In this document: piece after piece, positions 4,443 to 57,692 of the stretch
Numbering within the stretch: position 1 is the first letter of the stretch
Layout: the number at the start of each line of letters is the position of its first letter
Assembly: GCA_033664045.1 (NCBI GenBank)
Contig: GCA_033664045.1_3674.1
Length of the DNA stretch: 64,000 nucleotides
Direction: 5' to 3' (one strand)
Source of the DNA: a phage
Notes under the pieces: model-generated
Database searches by the model: none
Told to the model about the DNA's origin: nothing
The model's input: the letters and a program-made list of their open reading frames with translations, nothing else
Program-made: the position numbers and the translations under genes

Positions 4443-5903
4443 TTACTTAGCGTACTCGATTAATTCCACAGTTTTCCCAAAGCTAGGGATATAATTTTTA
4501 TTATACCCTTCGGTGAGAACCCATAAAGTATCGTACTTTTTCCACTTGTTGTCAACAGCCTTTTGTTCAAAGTTATGCTCAAAGTATAGGTCGGTCAGGA
4601 CGATGACATCTTTTGCATTTGGTATGTTGGCATCCAGATACTCGAACACGCAAGCAGCTGTTGTGCCCCATGTTGAGTGGACCTCATAGTTGATCATCTC
4701 GTCTATGTTGCCGCGAGTATATACTTTAACCTCTCCGACTTCAGTTGACCAACAGAACATTGTAACCTTAAACTCTTTATACAGATTGCACAATCCGGTG
4801 ATTTCATTGAACATTTTCTTTAAAGTTCTTTGAGAGATCGAGCCAGAAACGTCTAAAGCTACCACAATATCTATGGTGTTTTCCGGATTACGACCAGGAA
4901 CAATAACGTGCTGGTTCTTGTTTATAGCCCCAACTTTTCGCATTGTGCTGGTCAAAGACCCAGATCGGCGACCAGGTTTTCTGTAGGTCAGTTCAGCCTT
5001 TCGTTTAGACAACATGCGTTGCTTAATGATGTCTATATAGTTGATTACAGGCTTGCCTCTGTTCTTGACAAACTCACGCACCGCCTCAGGGCAACGGCCT
5101 CCGGACGCTTGCATTGCTGCTTCCAGCATGTCACCAGAGTCTTGCATGGCCTGATCTTTATCAGATTGGCTGATTACAGGTTGTGGCTGATCATACCCCA
5201 TAGCCTTTCCAAGATCATCACTGGTACCACCGTTCCCACTCATGTGATCATCTGTTTGTCGCTTATCTCCTTGAGAGTTCTCACCTTTACCGCTCTTATT
5301 TTTACCGTTATTCTGATCTCTTTGCTTATCAAGAACTGCATAGACGTTCTCAGCAATCCATCCATGAAACCTCATGTCGCAGTAGCAGCTGGCTAAGAAA
5401 CCAAAAGGCTTACCTTTCACGAACGTAGTGCTTTTCCCCTTCGGGAAGAAAACACAAGGAGGCTTGCTAAAGTCAACCACAAGTCCTGTGTTGATAACGT
5501 GATCACAAGCAATATTGAACAGTTCCGGCTCAAAGCTTTTACCACGGACCAGGTGATCACAGATAATATGCCCCACCTCATGCGACAGAAGAAAGGCCAC
5601 CTCTTTCACAGATTTTGGGGAATAGAAAACTTCAGCCATCTCAAACTGCTCGTTAGTTAGAGAGGCCTTAAGAATAGCCTTGCGTTCATCAGCCAACCCC
5701 ATAATGAACTCAGGACTGTAATAGATACGTTTATGGTCGGTTGCCATGGTAGAGCACCATGTGTGGTTCTCTACGAACTGCAACCCTGACAGTAGTGTGC
5801 CATAAAACGGCAGCTTTTCAAGAAGATACATACGTGCAGCCTGCAACATTCTCAGGGCATCATCTTTCTGTGAGGCAATGATTTCTGAACTTCTGCTATC
5901 CAT
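4443..5903 (-). CDS. Metallopeptidase-like (HExxH) plus von Willebrand factor A domain protein
   Basis: HEVGHIICDH (HExxH) in the N-terminal half; DIVVALDVSGSIS MIDAS-like motif in the C-terminal half; start placed at ATG 5903 (track start 5924 is TTG) with GGAG site. Confidence 0.7.
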   Translation of the reverse strand: MDSRSSEIIASQKDDALRMLQAARMYLLEKLPFYGTLLSGLQFVENHTWCSTMATDHKRIYYSPEFIMGLADERKAILKASLTNEQFEMAEVFYSPKSVKEVAFLLSHEVGHIICDHLVRGKSFEPELFNIACDHVINTGLVVDFSKPPCVFFPKGKSTTFVKGKPFGFLASCYCDMRFHGWIAENVYAVLDKQRDQNNGKNKSGKGENSQGDKRQTDDHMSGNGGTSDDLGKAMGYDQPQPVISQSDKDQAMQDSGDMLEAAMQASGGRCPEAVREFVKNRGKPVINYIDIIKQRMLSKRKAELTYRKPGRRSGSLTSTMRKVGAINKNQHVIVPGRNPENTIDIVVALDVSGSISQRTLKKMFNEITGLCNLYKEFKVTMFCWSTEVGEVKVYTRGNIDEMINYEVHSTWGTTAACVFEYLDANIPNAKDVIVLTDLYFEHNFEQKAVDNKWKKYDTLWVLTEGYNKNYIPSFGKTVELIEYAK

Positions 5904-48139: not shown

Positions 48140-48427
48140 TCATAGTGCCTCTAAGATTTCATATCCTTCGGGTCGGAATACAAGCCACTCCGTGGCTCCG
48201 TTTGGTCGATACGCTTTATACAGAACAACCTGATCTCGGCACATGCACATAGCTACATAGTTTTCATCCACACCTGCAGCCTGCATTGCAGCTTCTTCTC
48301 CGGCAACTGCTTTGCTTACAACCTCTTTGGTAGGCAGGTGTGCGATCAGCTCGTCACCATCATTAATTCCAAAATGGCTGAGTTCTCCATTGGTATCTTT
48401 AATCTTAATCTTAACCAGATCTTTCAT
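48140..48427 (-). CDS. Hypothetical protein (loose member of the MKxK…VEE family)
   Basis: Track ORF. Confidence 0.5.
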   Translation of the reverse strand: MKDLVKIKIKDTNGELSHFGINDGDELIAHLPTKEVVSKAVAGEEAAMQAAGVDENYVAMCMCRDQVVLYKAYRPNGATEWLVFRPEGYEILEAL

Positions 48428-48756
48428 TAGTCTTCCTCCAGGTTCAAAGGTCCTAAGATTTCATATGCCAGATTAGAAGTTACCAGAGGATCTTCTGCAT
48501 CTTTAGTATTATACCACCCGTGAATAACCAGAGTCCCACTCTGTTTCATATCTAACTGGAACTGTTCTGCAGTTTCCTCATCCATCTCTAAGATCTCCAT
48601 AAGGTATTTGATGTTAGGGAGGTATGCAGCTGTTACAGTCCCCTCTACCAGACCTTCAGGCCAACCTACATCTGGATGACAAGTAGGAACCAGGTTGGTC
48701 AGCTTAATGGTGTACGCTTTTTCTGCACGAGCCTTCAGTAACGGGTCAATCTTCAT
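48427..48756 (-). CDS. Hypothetical protein
   Basis: Track ORF; 1-nt overlap. Confidence 0.5.
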   Translation of the reverse strand: MKIDPLLKARAEKAYTIKLTNLVPTCHPDVGWPEGLVEGTVTAAYLPNIKYLMEILEMDEETAEQFQLDMKQSGTLVIHGWYNTKDAEDPLVTSNLAYEILGPLNLEED

Positions 48757-49106
48757 TATTCGTCCTCCTCTTCGGTGCCTGCTTCCAGTAATAAGTTAAG
48801 AATATCTTCTGCACAAGGCTCATAGAACTCTTGGCCTTCATTATCGATGATTTTGTAGTCATCTCCACGAATAATCAGTGGATCACTCTCAAAATTATCG
48901 AGACCTTTAACAACGACAACACGATCGATTGCCATCATTGTAAGAACTTTATCGACATTTTCCTCTGCTACACCATACTGCAGCAGAATGTCTTTGGTAG
49001 GAGGAACAGCATCCACAACAACACCGTTACCAAAACCTTCCGGAAGTTTAGCTAAAATATCTTCCGGAACCGCATTCACATCAAAACCGGTAATTTCTAC
49101 TTTCAT
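48756..49106 (-). CDS. Hypothetical protein (MKVE… acidic-tail family)
   Basis: Track ORF. Confidence 0.5.
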   Translation of the reverse strand: MKVEITGFDVNAVPEDILAKLPEGFGNGVVVDAVPPTKDILLQYGVAEENVDKVLTMMAIDRVVVVKGLDNFESDPLIIRGDDYKIIDNEGQEFYEPCAEDILNLLLEAGTEEEDE

Positions 49107-49367
49107 TTACAGCACCTCTTCGTCAACTACTTCATAAAAATGGCTTGGGATTGCAATAGCGTTCTCACCTTCACCTACAAACACAGTTCCGTCAAGAATC
49201 AACATCATAAGAATTTCTGGAATATCCTCTTCCGGAACGTTGCCAAAACCTTTAATCAGCTTGTAGGTTGGAAGATTTACCTCTAAGATGTCACCATCTT
49301 TAGAGCGGAAATCAACACCATCCTGAATCTCTGCCATTTCAAGGTTTTTCAGTTTAATCTTCATCAA
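49107..49367 (-). CDS. Hypothetical protein (MKIK… acidic-tail family)
   Basis: Track ORF. Confidence 0.5.
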   Translation of the reverse strand: MMKIKLKNLEMAEIQDGVDFRSKDGDILEVNLPTYKLIKGFGNVPEEDIPEILMMLILDGTVFVGEGENAIAIPSHFYEVVDEEVL

Positions 49368-49443
49368 TCAGTCTCCCGTCTTGTTAAGATGAAGGTATTA
49401 TTTCACACAGGGTTGGCGTTGTCAACACCTGTGTGCAAGAAAA

Positions 49444-49839
49444 TTACTGAAACAGTGCGGATAAATTACCTTCTGGTGGGAACTTATCTGCCAAAAACGG
49501 TGTTAGCACAGTAGCCTTCTGAAGATCTGGGGTCCACTCGTTGTTCAGAACATCCCAGTAGTACGCAATGTTGCTGTGTGGGTGCCGCATTACGAACTTT
49601 TTCCCTTCGTAGTCATCTGAAACCTCTACAGAAGAAATAACAACAGAATCTTCAAGGGTTTCTTCATAGAAAGATCCACCTTCAAATTTCCAACGAGATG
49701 CAAGAGCCCCTGCCTTGAACGCTGCAGATAACGGACTGTCGGCAAGAACATACATTTCTTGCACTCTGTCGCTGCGATCTTTGCTTCTTACGTTGTATAC
49801 AGTATCTGAGCTATACTCAACACGGTATAGGCTTACCAT
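49444..49839 (-). CDS. Hypothetical protein (paralog of 51649..52047)
   Basis: Shares the …FV(I/M)xHPxS…YWxxxxxxWTP pattern with 51649..52047. Confidence 0.5.
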   Translation of the reverse strand: MVSLYRVEYSSDTVYNVRSKDRSDRVQEMYVLADSPLSAAFKAGALASRWKFEGGSFYEETLEDSVVISSVEVSDDYEGKKFVMRHPHSNIAYYWDVLNNEWTPDLQKATVLTPFLADKFPPEGNLSALFQ

Positions 49840-50198
49840 TACCGCACCTCCTCAATAACTTCCACATCTGAACCTACCACAAATGCAAAAGGACAGGTTT
49901 CATGAAAGATATCCGGATCGCCGCCAAGCTTGCTAACAATTTCTCCACCACTAATAAACACAAGCTCACCGATATTCATCAGATTGCTGAAATAGTACCC
50001 ATAATGATTAAAGAATGCAGCAGGGTCAGGTAGACTAGTGGCCTCAAGCACTACATCGGTTGAGGTTACTTTCTTATCATAACCTCTCGCCTTTTGAGAT
50101 GCAAGATCTGCAGAATCCTCAGGAGACCGGAGATGCACAGGAATTGTTTCACCAATAAAGCGTACTTTCATATTATCACCCAACAACCATAGCTTCAA
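49839..50198 (-). CDS. Hypothetical protein
   Basis: Track ORF; true start may be the internal MKVRFIG at 50171. Confidence 0.45.
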   Translation of the reverse strand: MKLWLLGDNMKVRFIGETIPVHLRSPEDSADLASQKARGYDKKVTSTDVVLEATSLPDPAAFFNHYGYYFSNLMNIGELVFISGGEIVSKLGGDPDIFHETCPFAFVVGSDVEVIEEVR

Positions 50199-50439
50199 AA
50201 GGAGTCATGAACGAATAAACGGCATCATCATCTGCTTCAGGGAATGCTCCCAAAGACTTCATGTCTGAGCCCTTGACAAATACAAGGTTTTGATCAAAAG
50301 CTTCTTGGGGGTCAATCCGATACATATTTCGTAGAATATCGCTTACCTCCTCATCAAGAGGTGAGTATGCTGTGCACGTTTTTCCGATCAAGCTTTGAGA
50401 ATCAGGGTAGCCACCTGAAGTTTTAAAATAAACAATCAT
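50176..50439 (-). CDS. Hypothetical protein (loose family member; KGSDMKSLGA)
   Basis: Track ORF. Confidence 0.5.
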   Translation of the reverse strand: MIVYFKTSGGYPDSQSLIGKTCTAYSPLDEEVSDILRNMYRIDPQEAFDQNLVFVKGSDMKSLGAFPEADDDAVYSFMTPFEAMVVG

Positions 50440-50533
50440 ATAGTATCACCTCTGGTAAGAGATTGGGATTCCTTTCCCATAAATAATTACAAATCTTCCT
50501 TAGCGAGGAAGTAGTATGCTAATCCAAGCAGGA

Positions 50534-50803
50534 TTATTCCTCTACAATCTCATACACATCAGGAGTTACAATCAACTCTTCTCCGTTACCCGGTGCAACA
50601 AACACCACCATTCCTTCAGGTGTGTGCTTTTTAGCCATCTCGATAACATCTTCTCGCAGAGCTGGCTCCATCAGATCAAAACCTTCACCCAGGGCATCAC
50701 GAACCACCTTCATATAGTCAACTGGTTGTGCTTCGACAATCATGCCTTCAACCAGTCCACAGTTTTTGTCTGCCAGCTCAGTTTTGAATAATTTAATTTT
50801 CAT
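50534..50803 (-). CDS. Hypothetical protein (MKIKLF… acidic-tail family)
   Basis: Track ORF. Confidence 0.5.
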   Translation of the reverse strand: MKIKLFKTELADKNCGLVEGMIVEAQPVDYMKVVRDALGEGFDLMEPALREDVIEMAKKHTPEGMVVFVAPGNGEELIVTPDVYEIVEE

Positions 50804-50940
50804 TTAGAGGTCTCCTCAATTATTTGATATTAATAGCCGTAACCTAACACATTAACTACAACTGCGATTGCAAACATAATTTCAAAGCATGCAATCTCTA
50901 CATTTGGGACTAATTTCTTAATCACGCCCATTGTAGCACC

Positions 50941-51258
50941 TCATTCTCCAAAGTCAATCTTTACTTTGCCTTTCCTCTTACCTTTCTTTCCACCACATTT
51001 AGCCAGCTGACGTGCTGCAACATCTACCATACGGTCAGTTGCCTCGTAAGCATCACCTCCTTTAGCCTTGGCAATAACTTCTTTTCCAGAATTGTCAAAA
51101 ATGAACGCCATAACTTCCTGGCGATCATTTTCAACTTTTACACTCACACGTGCATGATTTACAGAAGGATGTAGACGCTCCAGTTTTGACATTTTTTGGG
51201 AAATGAAAGACACCATGCCTTCGGTGATTTCTACGTTGCCAGTGATCTCAATTTGCAT
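50941..51258 (-). CDS. hpf: Ribosome hibernation promoting factor (HPF/RaiA family)
   Basis: MQIEITGNVEITEGM…KLERL…VSVKVE…AKGGDAYEATD…AARQLAK aligns along its length with E. coli HPF (MQLNITGNNVEITEAL…KLEQY…VVLKVE…AEGQDMYAAID…LARQLTK); basic C-terminal extension. Confidence 0.8.
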   Translation of the reverse strand: MQIEITGNVEITEGMVSFISQKMSKLERLHPSVNHARVSVKVENDRQEVMAFIFDNSGKEVIAKAKGGDAYEATDRMVDVAARQLAKCGGKKGKRKGKVKIDFGE

Positions 51259-51340
51259 AACGTGTTCCTTTTAAAGAAGAGGGAACCAAACCCTCTTTGA
51301 AAACAATGATACTAAATCTGAAGCGTTGTGTCAACAGTTT

Positions 51341-51631
51341 TTACAGCTTGTTGTCGATAGTATCCAAAATATCTACAGCAAGATCTGCCATTTTTCGAAC
51401 ATACTCTGCAAACTCAACAGGGTCCTTGATTAAAGAATTCACAGGGTCGTACCCTAGAGCGTTCAAAATGGCTGCAGCATCTACAACCTTCTCATCATTT
51501 GCAAAGATCTCTCCGTCAAACTTATAGGTCCCTTTTGAGTCAATCTTGGCAGGGCATGGTTGGTCCATGCTTATTACACCATCTTTTTTAAACGATTCGG
51601 TGTTATCAGTATCCAAAACTAAATCCATCAT
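51341..51631 (-). CDS. Hypothetical protein
   Basis: Track ORF. Confidence 0.5.
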   Translation of the reverse strand: MMDLVLDTDNTESFKKDGVISMDQPCPAKIDSKGTYKFDGEIFANDEKVVDAAAILNALGYDPVNSLIKDPVEFAEYVRKMADLAVDILDTIDNKL

Positions 51632-51648
51632 GTAAGTACCCCACTGTT

Positions 51649-52047
51649 TCAGCTTATTTTTTCTTCAACAACCCCGTAGCTCGGGGCAGAGTCAAGAGCT
51701 TTCTGGTTTAAAAGTGGTGTAGCAGAATCTGCAAACGGTGTCCAGGTTTTTGTTCTGGCATTCCAGTAATGCTTCACTCTGGAATCAGGATGCACTATAA
51801 CAAAAACTTTTTCACTTGTCAACACATTAATTTCTTCCACACCCCTGCTGATAATTTCTCCGTCATATCCCCCGGTCTGGTATCCTTCGTACCAGGTTCT
51901 TGCATAGGCATAGCCAGCCTGCCAGCATGCAGCCTCCTCCGAGGTGGAGACTACGTAGAAGTCTTTCTCAAATTCTGGGATACGCCCTTGCTTTACGCTC
52001 CAAGCTCCGCGAATTTTCATTGTAACTTTGAACAGTTTATTTTTCAC
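51649..52047 (-). CDS. Hypothetical protein (paralog of 49444..49839)
   Basis: Track ORF. Confidence 0.5.
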   Translation of the reverse strand: MKNKLFKVTMKIRGAWSVKQGRIPEFEKDFYVVSTSEEAACWQAGYAYARTWYEGYQTGGYDGEIISRGVEEINVLTSEKVFVIVHPDSRVKHYWNARTKTWTPFADSATPLLNQKALDSAPSYGVVEEKIS

Positions 52048-52059
52048 AACGGTTACCCA

Positions 52060-52314
52060 TCACAGCTCTACAATATCTGCATCTGACCCTGCCCCAAAGG
52101 CATAATATGACTCTTCCCCGAAATAATATTCCGGTGCACCAGCCGCGATCAGGTCTGATCCCAAGATGAACACCACATTGTGGCCTACATAGCTGTGATT
52201 TTGCCGCACAGGATCATCCCACGGCAACCCTTCGAAGTATACAGCAGGTACGATCTTTCCCTTCAGGAATGATTGCCCCAAGTAGACGTTAGAGTCAAGA
52301 ATTTTAACCTTCAT
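52060..52314 (-). CDS. Hypothetical protein (MKVKIL…GSDLIAAGA family)
   Basis: MKVKILDSNVYLGQ…GSDLIAAGAPE. Confidence 0.55.
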   Translation of the reverse strand: MKVKILDSNVYLGQSFLKGKIVPAVYFEGLPWDDPVRQNHSYVGHNVVFILGSDLIAAGAPEYYFGEESYYAFGAGSDADIVEL

Positions 52315-52528
52315 GATCGTCCTCCACTACCTCTACATCCTCGCCTAGGGCAAAGTTGTAATTCCACTGACTGTCAAAGCATTCCTGAGATGCGCCAGCG
52401 GCAATAAGATCTGACCCTTTTATTTTTAAAAGGTCAGGGTAATCTTCATTAGGAACAGCGGTAAACACTTTTCCAACCAAAGGCTCTTGACCAATATAGA
52501 AGTTTGAATCTAAAACTTTAACTTTCAT
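52304..52528 (-). CDS. Hypothetical protein (MKVKVL…GSDLIAAGA family)
   Basis: MKVKVLDSNFYIGQ…GSDLIAAGASQ. Confidence 0.55.
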   Translation of the reverse strand: MKVKVLDSNFYIGQEPLVGKVFTAVPNEDYPDLLKIKGSDLIAAGASQECFDSQWNYNFALGEDVEVVEDDHEG

Positions 52529-52812
52529 CAGCGGTCTCCATCGGGCGGCTGTGGAACGTAAACACTGTTACGAATCTCGTCAGCAGTGTAGTAACAAGTT
52601 TTCCCCTCTCTGTCTCTGGCAGCAATGTATTCAGCTATACCAATAAGTGCCATAGACTTGGTGGCGTATCTTTTAAGCTCGTTAGCTCCCCAGCAAAATC
52701 TCTGCCAAAACGGTATGAAACCGAATAGGTACACCTTCTGTTTCACTATCCAATAAGTTCCTTTACAGATCACTTTAAACTCTGCAGCACTGTTACTGAC
52801 ACCATTGCTCAT
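52528..52812 (-). CDS. Hypothetical protein
   Basis: Track ORF. Confidence 0.5.
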   Translation of the reverse strand: MSNGVSNSAAEFKVICKGTYWIVKQKVYLFGFIPFWQRFCWGANELKRYATKSMALIGIAEYIAARDREGKTCYYTADEIRNSVYVPQPPDGDR

Positions 52813-52824
52813 TATCTTCTCCTT

Positions 52825-53109
52825 TTATTTTTCTAGGTTTGGCAGATATTGCACATTGGCAGGAGGAACACCGGATAGCTCCCAAACAACCATAGTGCTA
52901 TACCCTGGCACACTTCTAACATTTAAAAGAGTAGGAGCACCAACACATTTAAACTTCCTTTTCCCAAATCCGTTCTCCATCATAACCCAGTATCCGGTAT
53001 CCTGATCACCTGGAATTTGTGTTCCATCATCGTCCACCCAGCGGACGGTCCATTTCGATACAGCAACTGATCGGTATTTAAACTTTTTAAACCACTCAAA
53101 CAGTTTCAT
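52825..53109 (-). CDS. Hypothetical protein
   Basis: Track ORF. Confidence 0.5.
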   Translation of the reverse strand: MKLFEWFKKFKYRSVAVSKWTVRWVDDDGTQIPGDQDTGYWVMMENGFGKRKFKCVGAPTLLNVRSVPGYSTMVVWELSGVPPANVQYLPNLEK

Positions 53110-53204
53110 AATTCAGCCTCGCATAGCCATAATAACTATAAACAGACAAATAATGAATCCGAATGCCACGCCACCCATAAACGTTAATATTGATGCGACC
53201 ATAA

Positions 53205-53390
53205 TCAATCATCCTCGTTTGGCAGCTCTTCCATTTTGACATACCGAAAAGTGTTGCCGTAATAGTTGATCCATGACATCAGCTCGCTTTCTTGCTCTTC
53301 CTCTGGAATTGACTCTCGGATACTGACAAGTTTTAAGAAAATCCAATCACAATCCACACCCATCCTACCAGACAGGCAATAGTGCTTCAT
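53205..53390 (-). CDS. Hypothetical protein
   Basis: Track ORF. Confidence 0.4.
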   Translation of the reverse strand: MKHYCLSGRMGVDCDWIFLKLVSIRESIPEEEQESELMSWINYYGNTFRYVKMEELPNEDD

Positions 53391-53408
53391 AGAACCCTCC
53401 CGCCTGGT

Positions 53409-53603
53409 TTAGAATATTGCTTCTTCCATTACGCCTGAGAGCAATAAAGAGGTAATATGACTAACATTCATCTCAGACTCTACTTCCTCTCCTTTGAAAG
53501 GTTCGCGGCAGAATAGGACTGTTTCAGGACTTTTACTTCGAACAATATAATACAAATCATTCAAAGTGTTGTAGTAATAAGTGTTAAAACGTAAGTTTTT
53601 CAT
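53409..53603 (-). CDS. Hypothetical protein
   Basis: Track ORF. Confidence 0.45.
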   Translation of the reverse strand: MKNLRFNTYYYNTLNDLYYIVRSKSPETVLFCREPFKGEEVESEMNVSHITSLLLSGVMEEAIF

Positions 53604-53887
53604 TTTCTAGTCCCCTTCTTAGATTTTTGTGCAGAAACGCTTTCTGCAATACGAGACAGGCGTTCTTCTGAAGCTTTACCTACCCCAGGTTTCTTGAGCG
53701 GGTTATCTTTATGACCGCAATCCAATTGGATGCTAGATACCTCCCCAACCTTGTAAGTCAATTCTAACAAAAGGTTGTCGTCCTTGTCAAATGTTTTTAC
53801 GATAAATTTTTTATCGTCCTCCTGAACTTCGTACCTAGTACCTGCAGTATACAGCATGGTGCCATCAGCATAGGATATCCAGATCAT
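53600..53887 (-). CDS. Hypothetical protein
   Basis: Track ORF; 4-nt overlaps on both sides. Confidence 0.5.
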   Translation of the reverse strand: MIWISYADGTMLYTAGTRYEVQEDDKKFIVKTFDKDDNLLLELTYKVGEVSSIQLDCGHKDNPLKKPGVGKASEERLSRIAESVSAQKSKKGTRK

Positions 53888-54249
53888 TGAGCCTCCTTCT
53901 GCTGCAACAGCATTAACTCTTTGTTAGAGATCTTTACTGCTGTTTTTATTGTTCCATCTTTGCGGAACCACGACCAGAACTCTACAGTGTCCCCATTATC
54001 AAGCAAAGCATACCCGTGGTAGAAGTCTTTGTCCTTAGACAGTTTCTCATCTATGTCTGCATCGACACATTCGTGATCCATAGCATTTTGCCTGAATGCA
54101 TCGGTTATGCCAATGCACGCCTTGCTCTCAAGACTGGTATATCCAGTATCTTTTAATTCGGTTTCCCAAACCCAGTATCCTACAAAAGCTACGACGGTTA
54201 CCAGCCCCATAGCAGCTACCCACATTAATATCGACTTAATATTTGGCAT
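53884..54249 (-). CDS. Membrane-anchored protein (N-terminal helix)
   Basis: ILMWVAAMGLVTVVAFVGYWVW. Confidence 0.5.
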   Translation of the reverse strand: MPNIKSILMWVAAMGLVTVVAFVGYWVWETELKDTGYTSLESKACIGITDAFRQNAMDHECVDADIDEKLSKDKDFYHGYALLDNGDTVEFWSWFRKDGTIKTAVKISNKELMLLQQKEAQ

Positions 54250-54309
54250 TCTCTCTACCTCTTTCTTAGTTTAATTAATCATGGCACATCCTTTGTGCCT
54301 TGTTGTACA

Positions 54310-54771
54310 CTACTTAAACAACAGTTCAAGATAGTGCAAAATTAACAGAAGTTGAATTACGCCTAGCACAACGGCGAGTATGTTAATCTTAGAATCAAAA
54401 AACTTCTTAACTTTTACCCTAAAAGGCTCTTTAATGTCCTTTACGATCCTATTTATAGATGATTTCATATCCCTGATTACCATCCTAAACATTAGAGACG
54501 GATCCTCCTTCTCTGTAACAGAATCGAAAACATACTCTCTTCGGTCATAAGGCCCTCCAGATCTGCGTATTAACCTCTCCACAGAGACCTCGTACGACAC
54601 ACCTGTAACGTAATCATCTATGACAAGTAGTGACGGGTCTTTATCATCCAAGGGTATTAAAGTTATCTTTCCAGATTTTGTTAAAATTTCTCCTTTTTCA
54701 AGCAAGGTGTACCAATGCTCTCTACCAAGATTGTTGAGGCACGTTTTTACATATTTAACAAACATCGTCAC
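54310..54771 (-). CDS. Tail-anchored membrane protein (C-terminal helix)
   Basis: C-terminal ILAVVLGVIQLLLILHYL. Confidence 0.5.
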   Translation of the reverse strand: MTMFVKYVKTCLNNLGREHWYTLLEKGEILTKSGKITLIPLDDKDPSLLVIDDYVTGVSYEVSVERLIRRSGGPYDRREYVFDSVTEKEDPSLMFRMVIRDMKSSINRIVKDIKEPFRVKVKKFFDSKINILAVVLGVIQLLLILHYLELLFK

Positions 54772-54971
54772 CCCTCATCGCACGTCTGATATAACCATTC
54801 TATGAAATCTTGATACCACTCTCCCTCTGAGCGCTCCGTAGGCCAATAATCTTCCCCCTCTCTTGCATTAAAATCTGAGTATTCAACTTTCCACTCCTTT
54901 ACCAGCTCGTGGAGAAGGTTTTCGGCCTGTTCTAAGGATTTATTTTTTGTCATTACTGTCCCCTTTTTCAA
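54768..54971 (-). CDS. Hypothetical protein
   Basis: Track ORF. Confidence 0.45.
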   Translation of the reverse strand: MKKGTVMTKNKSLEQAENLLHELVKEWKVEYSDFNAREGEDYWPTERSEGEWYQDFIEWLYQTCDEG

Positions 54972-55173
54972 GATAATTATACATCAGTGCCGCGCCACCC
55001 AAAATGGCTACTAGCAGTAATACTCCAGAGAGCATTTCAATAAACATGGCTTGAAACATTAGAAGGCCCCCTCTAATTTTACGCACCATTTTAAATACAC
55101 ACTCTTTTCCCATGAAGATGCTGAACTAAGGTCTGTATGGAATGCAATCTCCCTAAGAATAGTGTAAACAGTT

Positions 55174-55410
55174 TCAGGCACTGTTACCATCCTTATCTGC
55201 CTCCTTCATTTTCCTGACGGTTTTACAGTGATCTACCAAGCACATAACAACAATGAAGAGAACGACAGGCCAAAAAGGTGCGGCAGTGATTATAGTTATA
55301 AAGTCGTCAAACTTAATTTTTCTACAAGATATGATGCAAAGAGTTGCTAAAACAACCATTGTCAGAAAGGTCAATGCGCAATACCAAACCAACACAGTAT
55401 CTATGGCCAT
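55174..55410 (-). CDS. Membrane protein (two hydrophobic helices)
   Basis: VLVWYCALTFLTMVVLATLCII and AAPFWPVVLFIVVMCLV. Confidence 0.5.
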   Translation of the reverse strand: MAIDTVLVWYCALTFLTMVVLATLCIISCRKIKFDDFITIITAAPFWPVVLFIVVMCLVDHCKTVRKMKEADKDGNSA

Positions 55411-55411
55411 A

Positions 55412-55939
55412 TCACATCTCCTGGTTCAAACTGTTAAGAAAGGATACTCTGTCTTCGCTATTTTTCTCTGTGATATACCCTCCAAACATGGAAAGAATCA
55501 CATGCTTCAAGTAATCTTTTTCTGGGTCGCTTAGATGATTGCGTGGCTTTATTTCCACATCATGGTAGTCATACAATCCACAATCATGATACCCCCAGTA
55601 TCGACACACCTCAATACTGATCGGGAGTTTTTTGTCACACGAAACTTTCCAACGGGTTACGTTGTTACCAGGGGATAAATCCTCGCCCACCTTCACGAAT
55701 GACAAATCGTAATTCATAAACTTTTCGTACAGTTTAAGTACAAAACCCTCGACCTGTGGAGAAACACCAGCCACTAGCTGGGCGTATCTATATTTACTTT
55801 CAATAATTTTTCGGCGCTTTGCTGTAAGGTTTATTGCAGCAATTTGACTCTCTGAGTATCTCCAAGGCTTGTATATAAATGCTTTCGGGTCTTTATCGCC
55901 ATAAAAATCTTTCCAATCAACTAGCAGCATACCTGTCAC
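55412..55939 (-). CDS. Hypothetical protein
   Basis: Track ORF. Confidence 0.5.
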   Translation of the reverse strand: MTGMLLVDWKDFYGDKDPKAFIYKPWRYSESQIAAINLTAKRRKIIESKYRYAQLVAGVSPQVEGFVLKLYEKFMNYDLSFVKVGEDLSPGNNVTRWKVSCDKKLPISIEVCRYWGYHDCGLYDYHDVEIKPRNHLSDPEKDYLKHVILSMFGGYITEKNSEDRVSFLNSLNQEM

Positions 55940-56169
55940 TCCTCCACAACTTCAAGGCCTTTTCCGCCTCGTTCTGGTAGATTACTTAAAGACAGGTAAT
56001 ACGTATAGTCAGGAGAGATCCTGCCAGACTCTGCACCTGCAGATAGTAAATCTTTTCCCTTAACCATGACAACATTATCGTTTGCAGATAGTCGTTTTGC
56101 TTCCACAATTTTACCAACGCAGTCAACCAAGGAAGGGTACCCTAAATCTGTAAGAAATTTAACTTTCAT
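55936..56169 (-). CDS. Hypothetical protein (MKVKFL…GKDLLSAGA family)
   Basis: MKVKFLTDLGYP…GKDLLSAGAES…EVVEE. Confidence 0.55.
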   Translation of the reverse strand: MKVKFLTDLGYPSLVDCVGKIVEAKRLSANDNVVMVKGKDLLSAGAESGRISPDYTYYLSLSNLPERGGKGLEVVEE

Positions 56170-56208
56170 GCTACCTCCTACTTCTACCGTCCCTGGTAAG
56201 ATAAATTA

Positions 56209-56607
56209 TTACTGAACAGAGCGCGGAGCTGGGAAGGATAACTCTTCTAAAGAGAAGATTTCATTCCCCACAATCCATGTTGCAGGATCATCTGGGTTTA
56301 CTGGATAGATAATCATCACCTCGTCAGTGTTACATACCCGCTTTTTACCTGTGGAGTCATCAGCAACCAGCATGCGCGGTTCTTCAGAAATGCACAGGTA
56401 GCCTCCTCGGCCCACTGTTCCTTCCACAGGATCTTGTCCTTTGATCACGATGATTATCTTCTCTCCTGAGGCGATATTACCTTGCACACTCACCGTTTGA
56501 CCAACCTTGGATGTGCCAATCTTAGTGACTTCGAACATTACATCCCGAATTACTGTTGCATAATCGCCAGACACTTTCTTACCTTCTTTAGTGATCTCAA
56601 TCTTCAT
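56209..56607 (-). CDS. Hypothetical protein
   Basis: Track ORF. Confidence 0.5.
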   Translation of the reverse strand: MKIEITKEGKKVSGDYATVIRDVMFEVTKIGTSKVGQTVSVQGNIASGEKIIIVIKGQDPVEGTVGRGGYLCISEEPRMLVADDSTGKKRVCNTDEVMIIYPVNPDDPATWIVGNEIFSLEELSFPAPRSVQ

Positions 56608-56877: not shown

Positions 56878-57162
56878 CTACCAAGTTACTGTCAAGTAGG
56901 CAACAGTGTTATTTTTCTCTGGAGAGATGCCAACAACATCTACCTGCAGACCTCCTGCCCTCAAATCCCCAACAATATGCGGGAAGTAATCTGAGAGATG
57001 CGAGGGTAGATTTATCGAAAATCCGCATCCCAGAAAGCCTGCTAACGCTTTATTTTGTATCTCCCCTACAATCGCATCATAAATGGAGTTAAGCTCGTCA
57101 GGGAGCGTTACAGGACGTTTTAGCGCTAACTGGTGTAATTTGTCCTTAGCACTCATTTTCAT
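56878..57162 (-). CDS. Hypothetical protein
   Basis: Start placed at the internal Met that overlaps the Dam stop (ATGA). Confidence 0.5.
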   Translation of the reverse strand: MKMSAKDKLHQLALKRPVTLPDELNSIYDAIVGEIQNKALAGFLGCGFSINLPSHLSDYFPHIVGDLRAGGLQVDVVGISPEKNNTVAYLTVTW

Positions 57163-57692
57163 TTCAGGTCTACCTCTGGGGGTGCCAACCACATAAACGG
57201 CGGCAAGTCTAAACGGTTTTTCTTATCCCACACAAAATATGCATATGCTTGCCCGTCAGTTCTGCCATTTGATTGAAATGATGGACGCTTAGATATTGTG
57301 ATCACAGTGGTAGGTGCATTATCAAGCCACCATTCAAATCTGGCTTTGCTTTCCAGAAAATTAAGACGCAAAAGCATAATAACTACGTCAGCATCTTTCA
57401 ACGCCTTGTCTACGAACTCACGAGCCAGACTGTACGGTGGGTTGGTGATAATACAGTCAACATGGTTGTATTCTGTATTCAGATAGTCAACACCTTCTTG
57501 GATTTCTCCCCATGCAGATCCTAACGGCATACGGGAGTAGAACACACCTGAGGCACTATTCCTGCAAGGCTCTAAGTAGGTCCAGTCCTCTGGGAACGGA
57601 ATAAGGTCATACAGCCCTTCTGCACACCACTCCGGTGTCACATACTCATCGTATGCGTTACGTTGTTCATCAGGTTTTCTAGCACAAGTCAT
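57159..57692 (-). CDS. dam: DNA N6-adenine methyltransferase (phage Dam-like)
   Basis: Catalytic motif IV ITNPPYS; about 177 aa. Confidence 0.7.
   Translation of the reverse strand: MTCARKPDEQRNAYDEYVTPEWCAEGLYDLIPFPEDWTYLEPCRNSASGVFYSRMPLGSAWGEIQEGVDYLNTEYNHVDCIITNPPYSLAREFVDKALKDADVVIMLLRLNFLESKARFEWWLDNAPTTVITISKRPSFQSNGRTDGQAYAYFVWDKKNRLDLPPFMWLAPPEVDLK

Follow-up and report, generated by a model that had tools for sequence, protein, structure and literature searches.

We analyzed a block of small genes in a 64,000-nucleotide stretch of phage DNA (assembly GCA_033664045.1, contig GCA_033664045.1_3674.1; the whole stretch is referred to hereafter as the window), centred on positions 48140-56607. 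The genes of this block are small, tightly packed and encoded on the minus strand, and 12 out of approximately 29 fall into three families of paralogs, which we termed A, B and C. The main subject here is family A, a set of five genes encoding small proteins with a predicted SH3-like fold. At the DNA level, the 48-57 kb stretch was 92–95% identical to around 120 records of rV5-like Escherichia coli myoviruses (genus Vequintavirus), with FV3 as the nearest record (94.4%), and the phage of the window is a Vequintavirus, that is, an rV5/FV3-like E. coli myovirus. The equivalents of the block in rV5 are ORF126-154, which are included, together with nucleotide-metabolism and replication genes, in a proposed transcription unit spanning 82-163 (PMC3606486). 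Across the annotated relatives, the paralog genes of the block carry the label 'hypothetical protein'.

Five family A paralogs in the leftward block

A first-pass annotation, made from the sequence and its open reading frames (ORFs), had singled out three genes of the block as clear paralogs, i.e., 55936-56169 (77 residues; rV5 ORF127/gp122), 52304-52528 (74 residues; ORF140/gp135) and 52060-52314 (84 residues; ORF141/gp136). All three were confirmed as minus-strand ORFs with these coordinates and as paralogs, both by BLASTP and by their matches to phrog_5009. They carry the N-terminal MKVK[FVI]L and the central G[KS]DL[LI][SA]AGA motifs, and their C-termini (LEVVEE, VEVVEDDHEG and ADIVEL) follow the acidic pattern that had been described. 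In composition-corrected BLASTP comparisons, 52060-52314 and 52304-52528 were 42% identical over 83 residues (E 7e-16), 52304-52528 matched 55936-56169 at E 1e-6, and 52060-52314 matched 55936-56169 at E 4e-3. The three core genes matched phrog_5009 at E-values from 6e-32 to 3e-38 (8.5e-36 for 55936-56169, 2.7e-38 for 52304-52528 and 5.8e-32 for 52060-52314), over profile positions 1-74 or 1-69. Since the similarity is far above chance and the phrog_5009 match runs from end to end, it is not a mere effect of start-codon context or composition, which had been named as the finding that would overturn the family; instead, the matches span the full length of the proteins after correction for composition.

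A hidden Markov model (HMM) built from the three core genes and compared with the 461 ORFs of the window added two diverged members: 50176-50439 (minus strand, 87 residues; rV5 ORF147/gp142) at E 8e-7, and the ORF 49839-50198 at E 6e-5, with the next match at E 0.44. The latter gives a protein of 110 residues when read from the ATG at 50171 (49839-50171, minus strand; rV5 ORF148/gp143). In the PHROG database, 50176-50439 matched phrog_5009 weakly (E 1.2e-4) as well as a group of its own, phrog_13920, and 49839-50171 matched phrog_13661 and not phrog_5009. This fifth gene is tied to family A via profiles; in BLASTP, its C-terminal half matched 52304-52528 and 52060-52314 at E 1e-3 and 2e-3, respectively. 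In hhalign comparisons with a broad family A profile, 50176-50439 scored 98.4% and the 49839 gene 98.5%; this profile already contained the five window genes, both of these included, and the independent evidence for their membership is therefore provided by the E-values of the three-gene HMM. When all 1126 ORFs of the complete rV5 genome were scanned, exactly five family A copies were recovered (ORF127, 140, 141, 147 and 148), all of them within approximately 6.4 kb (93.2–99.6 kb), and nothing else scored below E 0.02. The expanded family of small proteins proposed for this leftward accessory block is thus genuine, and it has more members than the three first recognized. Identity among the paralogs ranges from 27 to 50%, and they are old and anciently diverged.

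The genes 52304-52528 (upstream) and 52060-52314 (downstream) form a tandem pair with an 11-nt overlap at 52304-52314 of the minus strand, ATGAAGGTTAA, at which the reading frame of the upstream paralog terminates within the MKVK codons of its downstream neighbour. As read from the sequence, this arrangement suggests translational coupling. An identical 11-nt overlap joins two adjacent family A members in an unrelated SU10-like contig (L004, 4195-4205), and the upstream protein ends in ...EG at both junctions; common ancestry of the pair, or a coincidence favoured by the MKVK codons, may account for this identity. At the end of 49839-50171, too, the stop codon and the start codon of the following gene overlap (TAATG). 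A terminator-like hairpin, with a 10-bp stem and a T-rich tail, was observed at 52411-52437 (minus strand), inside the coding sequence of 52304-52528.

None of ten block proteins examined matched a Pfam model at E-values up to 1, including those of the SH3 clan, DUF7244, SH3b and KOW (PF00467). All NCBIfam matches were at E ≥ 0.026 and far under the cut-off scores, and the best match in a sequence search of the PDB was a lactate dehydrogenase at E 0.06, which was judged to be due to chance. Known anti-defence proteins (Ocr, ArdA, Arn, Tad, Gad and others) were absent from the PDB and BFVD matches, which came from general searches and not from a search with anti-defence profiles. Regarding the literature on vequintavirus early genes and SH3-like phage proteins, we found nothing about the genes of families A, B or C, and the words 'paralog' and 'duplication' do not occur in the rV5 genome paper (PMC3606486).

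Predicted fold, distribution and selection of family A

Structure prediction, which had been put forward as a check on the family, was carried out with AlphaFold2 on 52304-52528 using a 37-sequence alignment. A confident model was obtained (predicted local distance difference test, pLDDT, 92.6; predicted template modelling score, pTM, 0.80), according to which family A adopts the SH3-like five-stranded small beta-barrel fold. The strands in this model comprise residues 2-5, 21-23, 33-37, 56-61 and 65-69, and residues 38-43 form a short helix; the motif G-[SK]-D-L-[IL]-x-A-G-A corresponds to this helix and its flanks, directly after strand 3. Across 123 domains, the most conserved positions were Tyr11, Gly38, Leu41, Gly45, Ala46, Tyr57 and Phe59, and the three aromatic residues of this group, Tyr11, Tyr57 and Phe59, probably serve in packing of the barrel or belong to a binding surface.

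When alignments were set against the model, most of the differences among the paralogs proved to be insertions, placed in the loop that follows strand 1, in the one linking strands 2 and 3, or in the turn from strand 4 to strand 5. The minimal domain is that of 52304-52528. In 55936-56169, 7 residues are inserted in the strand 4-5 turn, 52060-52314 and 50176-50439 have inserts of 14 and approximately 20 residues, respectively, in the strand 2-3 loop, and 49839-50171 has one insert there and another in the first loop. In classical SH3 domains, surfaces at these places determine ligand specificity; the first loop corresponds to the RT position and the strand 2-3 loop to the n-Src position. Since insertions in family A fall on such specificity surfaces, the copies probably have different partners.

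The net charge of the window copies ranged from −1 (55936-56169) to −10, with a median of −4 for the family and values of up to +3 among its members, and neither a signal peptide nor a membrane segment was visible on inspection of the sequences. In comparison with other SH3-like small beta-barrels (Spt5/NusG KOW, PsaE and eukaryotic SH3), family A shares the fold only, with 4–24% identity and no common motifs, and it differs from them in its acidic character and in the extra short helix with the G-x-D-L-I-x-A-G-A motif. With no match to Pfam PF00467 and net charges of −1 to −10, the window copies do not qualify as members of the KOW, NusG-Spt5 or ribosomal L24 group.

Profile building and a search of phage databases had also been advised; beyond the phrog_5009 matches, they yielded homologues in unrelated phages. 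A HMMER scan of 1.84 billion cluster representatives returned 81 family A clusters (50% identity) at E-values up to 1e-3, most of which were small single-domain proteins of 63–90 residues. Fused polypeptides were also present, with three copies of the domain in one (P0040) and two copies each in three others (P0043, P0067 and P0098), and a further protein (P0078) combines the family A domain with DUF3310. A 2833-residue BapA-like repeat protein (P0056) was considered a false positive and was left out of the family A profiles.

Several of these phages carry more than one copy. The T4-type phage RB49 (Krischvirus; L024, 40688-46864) has at least five family A ORFs between gene 38 and dam (ORF071c, 073c, 074c, 076c and 080c), and its cluster of small hypothetical ORFs is therefore in part an expansion of the family A domain. 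Three members are present in Vibrio phage VpV262 (ORF27/31/32), and two adjacent members in each of the contigs L004 and L020. The members in RB49, VpV262 and other phages, which were detected with HMM E-values from 1e-11 to 1e-3 and by tblastn, are small hypothetical proteins in accessory clusters. The recurrence of multi-copy clusters in unrelated phages indicates that expansion is a trait of the family. A single copy was found in temperate phages, namely in E. coli prophages (P0032/P0033) and in the mEp021 group, where it lies between a Q-type antiterminator gene and the holin of the lysis genes; P0032 is located approximately 870 bp upstream of a holin-lysozyme-Rz cassette. In the SU10-like contig, a family A member adjoins a gene for a helix-turn-helix regulator, and in metagenomic contigs family A genes stand beside those for primase-helicase, deoxycytidine monophosphate deaminase, RNA ligase or Dam methylase. 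Genes for single-stranded DNA-binding protein or exonuclease were also recorded among the neighbours. The context was always a block of small early or accessory genes. Thus, RB49, VpV262, the mEp021 group and the E. coli prophages share the same family with the window, often in several copies, and differ from it in copy number and position. The unannotated phrog_5009 itself comes without a described structure or paralogy, and its satellites phrog_13920 and phrog_13661 hold the fourth and fifth members.

The first-pass annotation had linked expanded families of this kind with diversifying selection. We determined the ratio of nonsynonymous to synonymous substitution rates (dN/dS) gene-wide, by the pooled Nei-Gojobori method, across ten vequintavirus genomes. 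Values for the five paralogs were 0.119 (55936-56169), 0.107 (52304-52528), 0.178 (52060-52314), 0.082 (50176-50439) and 0.067 (49839-50171), with synonymous rates (dS) of 0.11–0.48; they do not point to diversifying selection and fall inside the range of the neighbouring genes (0.009–0.28). Each family A paralog is under purifying selection, and all five copies are of constant length in the ten genomes. The paralogs are old, with the 27–50% identity given above, and each is conserved; the pattern resembles subfunctionalisation of long standing more than an arms race still under way.

A different kind of change was found in two rV5-like contigs (L017 and L018, both at 5001-5213), in which a single 70-residue chimera (P0011) takes the place of the tandem pair. 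Its N-terminal half is of the 52304-52528 type and its C-terminal half of the 52060-52314 type, and recombination between neighbouring copies can therefore lower copy number. Family A would grow and shrink by tandem duplication and by recombination of neighbouring copies.

Families B and C and other features of the block

Family B consists of two genes on the minus strand, 51649-52047 (132 residues; rV5 ORF142/gp137), directly downstream of the tandem pair of family A, and 49444-49839 (131 residues; rV5 ORF149/gp144), directly downstream of the second family A pair. They are paralogs (BLASTP E 8e-10) and both match phrog_7379, at E 3e-73 and 2e-66, respectively. The order A-A-B consequently occurs twice, as 52304, 52060 and 51649, and then as 50176, 49839 and 49444, a pattern suggestive of a three-gene unit that was duplicated long ago. 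This interpretation is weakened by the finding that the adjacent genes 52304-52528 and 52060-52314 are each other's closest relatives, so that duplication of the unit would also need later gene conversion. Searches for family B with tblastn returned vequintaviruses alone, and no family B gene accompanied those of family A in the other phages that were examined.

Several neighbours had been described as sharing the N- and C-terminal pattern of family A more loosely. Five of them proved to be related to one another and make up the highly diverged family C, yet membership of family A could not be demonstrated for them by hhalign, in which 50534-50803 reached 34% (over the N-terminal 28 columns only), 49107-49364 reached 11% and the rest ≤1%. 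The gene 56209-56607 was related to neither A nor C in profile comparisons. Family C comprises a tandem head-to-tail array of four genes at 48140-49364, plus 50534-50803, all on the minus strand. When each gene in turn was omitted from the HMM, the omitted gene was in every case the best non-training match among the 461 ORFs. The E-values were 3.7e-5 for 48140-48427 (95 residues), 1e-4 for 48427-48756 (109 residues), 2.5e-4 for 48756-49106 (116 residues, with an acidic C-terminal tail), 4e-4 for 50534-50803 (89 residues) and 0.2, yet still top-ranked, for 49107-49364 (85 residues).

An AlphaFold2 model of 49107-49364 (pLDDT 88.7) has five strands ordered as in family A; two helices (34-39 and 45-58) form an insert after strand 2 and before strand 3. 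In BFVD, it matched the model of a 95-residue protein of phage ECP32 (E 3.8e-3), which on account of its length we equate with the orthologue of 48140-48427, and that of an 86-residue protein of Vibrio phage Vc1 (E 7.7e-5). Profile-profile comparison of A and C with hhalign gave a probability of 57% (P 1e-4), limited to the N-terminal 29 columns. The models of the two families have the strand order in common, with the helical insert in C, and only weak BFVD matches are shared between them. Families A and C may form one superfamily, with a link that is only suggestive; two database searches for sequences bridging them returned only vequintavirus orthologues, truncations and chimeras. In the rV5 reference, the orthologue of 48140-48427 is split into two overlapping short ORFs, ORF153/154 (L008, 3758-4028), probably by a frameshift or a sequencing error in the record. 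A metagenomic protein of 98 residues (P0164) is a chimera, whose N-terminal 55 residues match Pfam DUF7399 and whose C-terminal half is of the 48427-48756 type, a further sign of recombination within the block.

With regard to transcription, two sigma-70-type sites were predicted on the minus strand, each matching the consensus at 11 of 12 positions, and together they occupy the only sizeable intergenic gaps of the block. One, at 51306-51334 (TTGACA-17 nt-TATCAT), lies in the gap upstream of the RaiA/HPF gene described below and corresponds to rV5 P144; the other, at 49397-49425 (TTGACA-17 nt-AATAAT, with an extended -10 TG), lies upstream of the family C array and corresponds to rV5 P150. The rV5 promoters are themselves predictions (PMC3606486).

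The gene 50941-51258 (minus strand) sits in the middle of the block, between both groups of family A paralogs. Its orthologue matches Pfam Ribosomal_S30AE (PF02482), and it encodes a homologue of the ribosome hibernation factor RaiA/HPF that is already annotated in rV5-like phages. A DNA methyltransferase gene is found near the block, at 57159-57692. The adjoining genes 55174-55410 and 55412-55930 (minus strand) had a close DNA match in just three of nine related genomes, compared with seven to nine of the nine for other genes of the block, and 55174-55930 looks like a local variable spot; the counterpart of the larger gene, 55412-55930, is labelled putative glycosidase in records of BASEL phages. 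Eighteen records named 'Campylobacter phage' (MG0656xx; host field Campylobacter jejuni) are approximately 95% identical to E. coli rV5-like phages over the block, and their host label looks doubtful.

Possible roles of the family A proteins

In the explanation that we tentatively prefer, and which we regard as quite possible though short of probable, the five anciently diverged, soluble and mostly acidic SH3-like paralogs of approximately 70 residues are early-made protein-binding modules aimed at host or phage partners. Each paralog would bind stoichiometrically to a protein of the host or of the phage and modulate its action, in the service of host takeover or counter-defence, and the loop insertions would give the paralogs their different partners. 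Adjacent copies would probably act together, as may be proposed because of the putative translational coupling in the window and of the two- and three-copy fusions in other phages. Synthesis of the family A proteins probably takes place early or in mid-infection, given that their genes lie in a leftward unit with nucleotide-metabolism genes, that sigma-70 promoters are predicted, and that transcription units have been proposed for rV5. As to the host-interaction or anti-defence role that had been surmised for the family, the genomic context makes it plausible.

Several observations weigh against this explanation. Purifying selection over the whole genes, and a copy number that hardly varies among around 120 vequintaviruses, are not what a fast arms race would lead one to expect. 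The conserved positions are mostly glycine, alanine, leucine or aromatic residues, and their conservation may be purely structural. Lastly, the promoter scan gave 23 sites in total, against 20.6 expected from shuffled sequence, i.e., no excess.

Other explanations were also weighed. The place of the RaiA/HPF gene (50941-51258) between the two groups of paralogs might suggest that family A proteins bind nucleic acid or ribosomes in a KOW- or Sm-like manner and would, together with this phage homologue, help to reprogram translation. We consider this improbable, as the domains are acidic (net −1 to −10, median −4), which is unfavourable for RNA binding, neither a KOW nor any other Pfam model was matched at E up to 1, and, among the other phages examined, RaiA was not encoded next to family members. 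The same acidity, together with small size and probable early synthesis, would fit acidic DNA mimics or direct inhibitors of restriction-type defence comparable to Ocr, ArdA and Arn, which would be a sub-case of counter-defence; DNA methyltransferase genes do occur nearby (57159-57692 in the window, in L023, and dam in RB49), and multi-copy fusions could present an extended acidic surface. However, charge is not conserved, from −1 in 55936-56169 to as much as +3 in the family, a globular barrel of 70 residues is unlike the known elongated DNA mimics, and among solved structures the best sequence match was the lactate dehydrogenase at chance level (E 0.06), so that we give this proposal little credence.

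A role as lysis or cell-wall accessory modules, comparable to DUF7244 and to the wall-binding SH3b domains of endolysins, has a precedent in Drexlerviridae, in which a stand-alone SH3 protein adjoins the lysis cassette (PMC13164509). This DUF7244 protein of T1-like phages, which has been proposed to assist the endolysin (PMC13164509), resembles family A in being phage-encoded, SH3-like, approximately 70 residues long and accessory rather than core (PMC13164509), and the family A gene P0032 lies close to a lysis cassette in E. coli prophages. In contrast, DUF7244 occurs in one copy and is linked to the lysis cassette, whereas family A is multi-copy, is located in early or DNA-metabolism blocks and has no detectable sequence relationship with it; matches to DUF7244 or to any SH3 family were lacking in Pfam, and no signal peptide or membrane anchor is visible. 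Moreover, in rV5 a long distance separates the five genes (93.2–99.6 kb) from those for endolysin and spanin (2.0, 60.9 and 71.6 kb), and the neighbours in RB49, VpV262 and metagenomic contigs are replication and nucleotide-metabolism genes. A function in lysis thus seems very improbable to us. Finally, every copy is annotated as hypothetical and is very short, as would be the case for decaying duplicates devoid of function or for over-called ORFs. This notion is hardly credible and is effectively refuted by the selection data (dN/dS 0.067–0.178 at dS 0.11–0.48); lengths are intact in all ten genomes, the genes are conserved in around 120 phage records, the structure predictions are confident, and homologues exist in unrelated phage groups.

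The proposal of early-made protein-binding modules could be widened to family C. Families A and C would then constitute one superfamily of SH3-like adaptors, the ten genes in the 8.5-kb block would be an array of variants that differ in specificity, with a separate host defence or factor neutralised by each, adjacent copies would form hetero-oligomers, and family B would be a further partner. We regard this extended version as unlikely; if true, it would, in view of the recurring multi-copy clusters of RB49, VpV262 and other phages, amount to a widespread, previously unrecognised modular toolkit for counter-defence or host takeover in phages of Gammaproteobacteria.

Family A was already known as an unannotated PHROG. 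What is new is its extent of five members, its fold, families B and C, the recurrent multi-copy habit and the evidence against gene-wide diversifying selection. The result is a modest one, in that it describes a further stand-alone SH3-like phage accessory protein of a known class, and it changes no concept, given that multi-copy families of ORFans in variable regions of phage genomes were already known. Nevertheless, family A, which is without a Pfam entry, gains a sequence profile and a fold. Phages of the rV5 type are widely used in E. coli biocontrol and therapy, and most of the genes in their early region are without known function; the paralog families provide a short list of candidates for host-takeover or counter-defence screens. 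At the level of the family, a well-defined SH3-like domain has been independently kept in multiple copies by several unrelated phage lineages.

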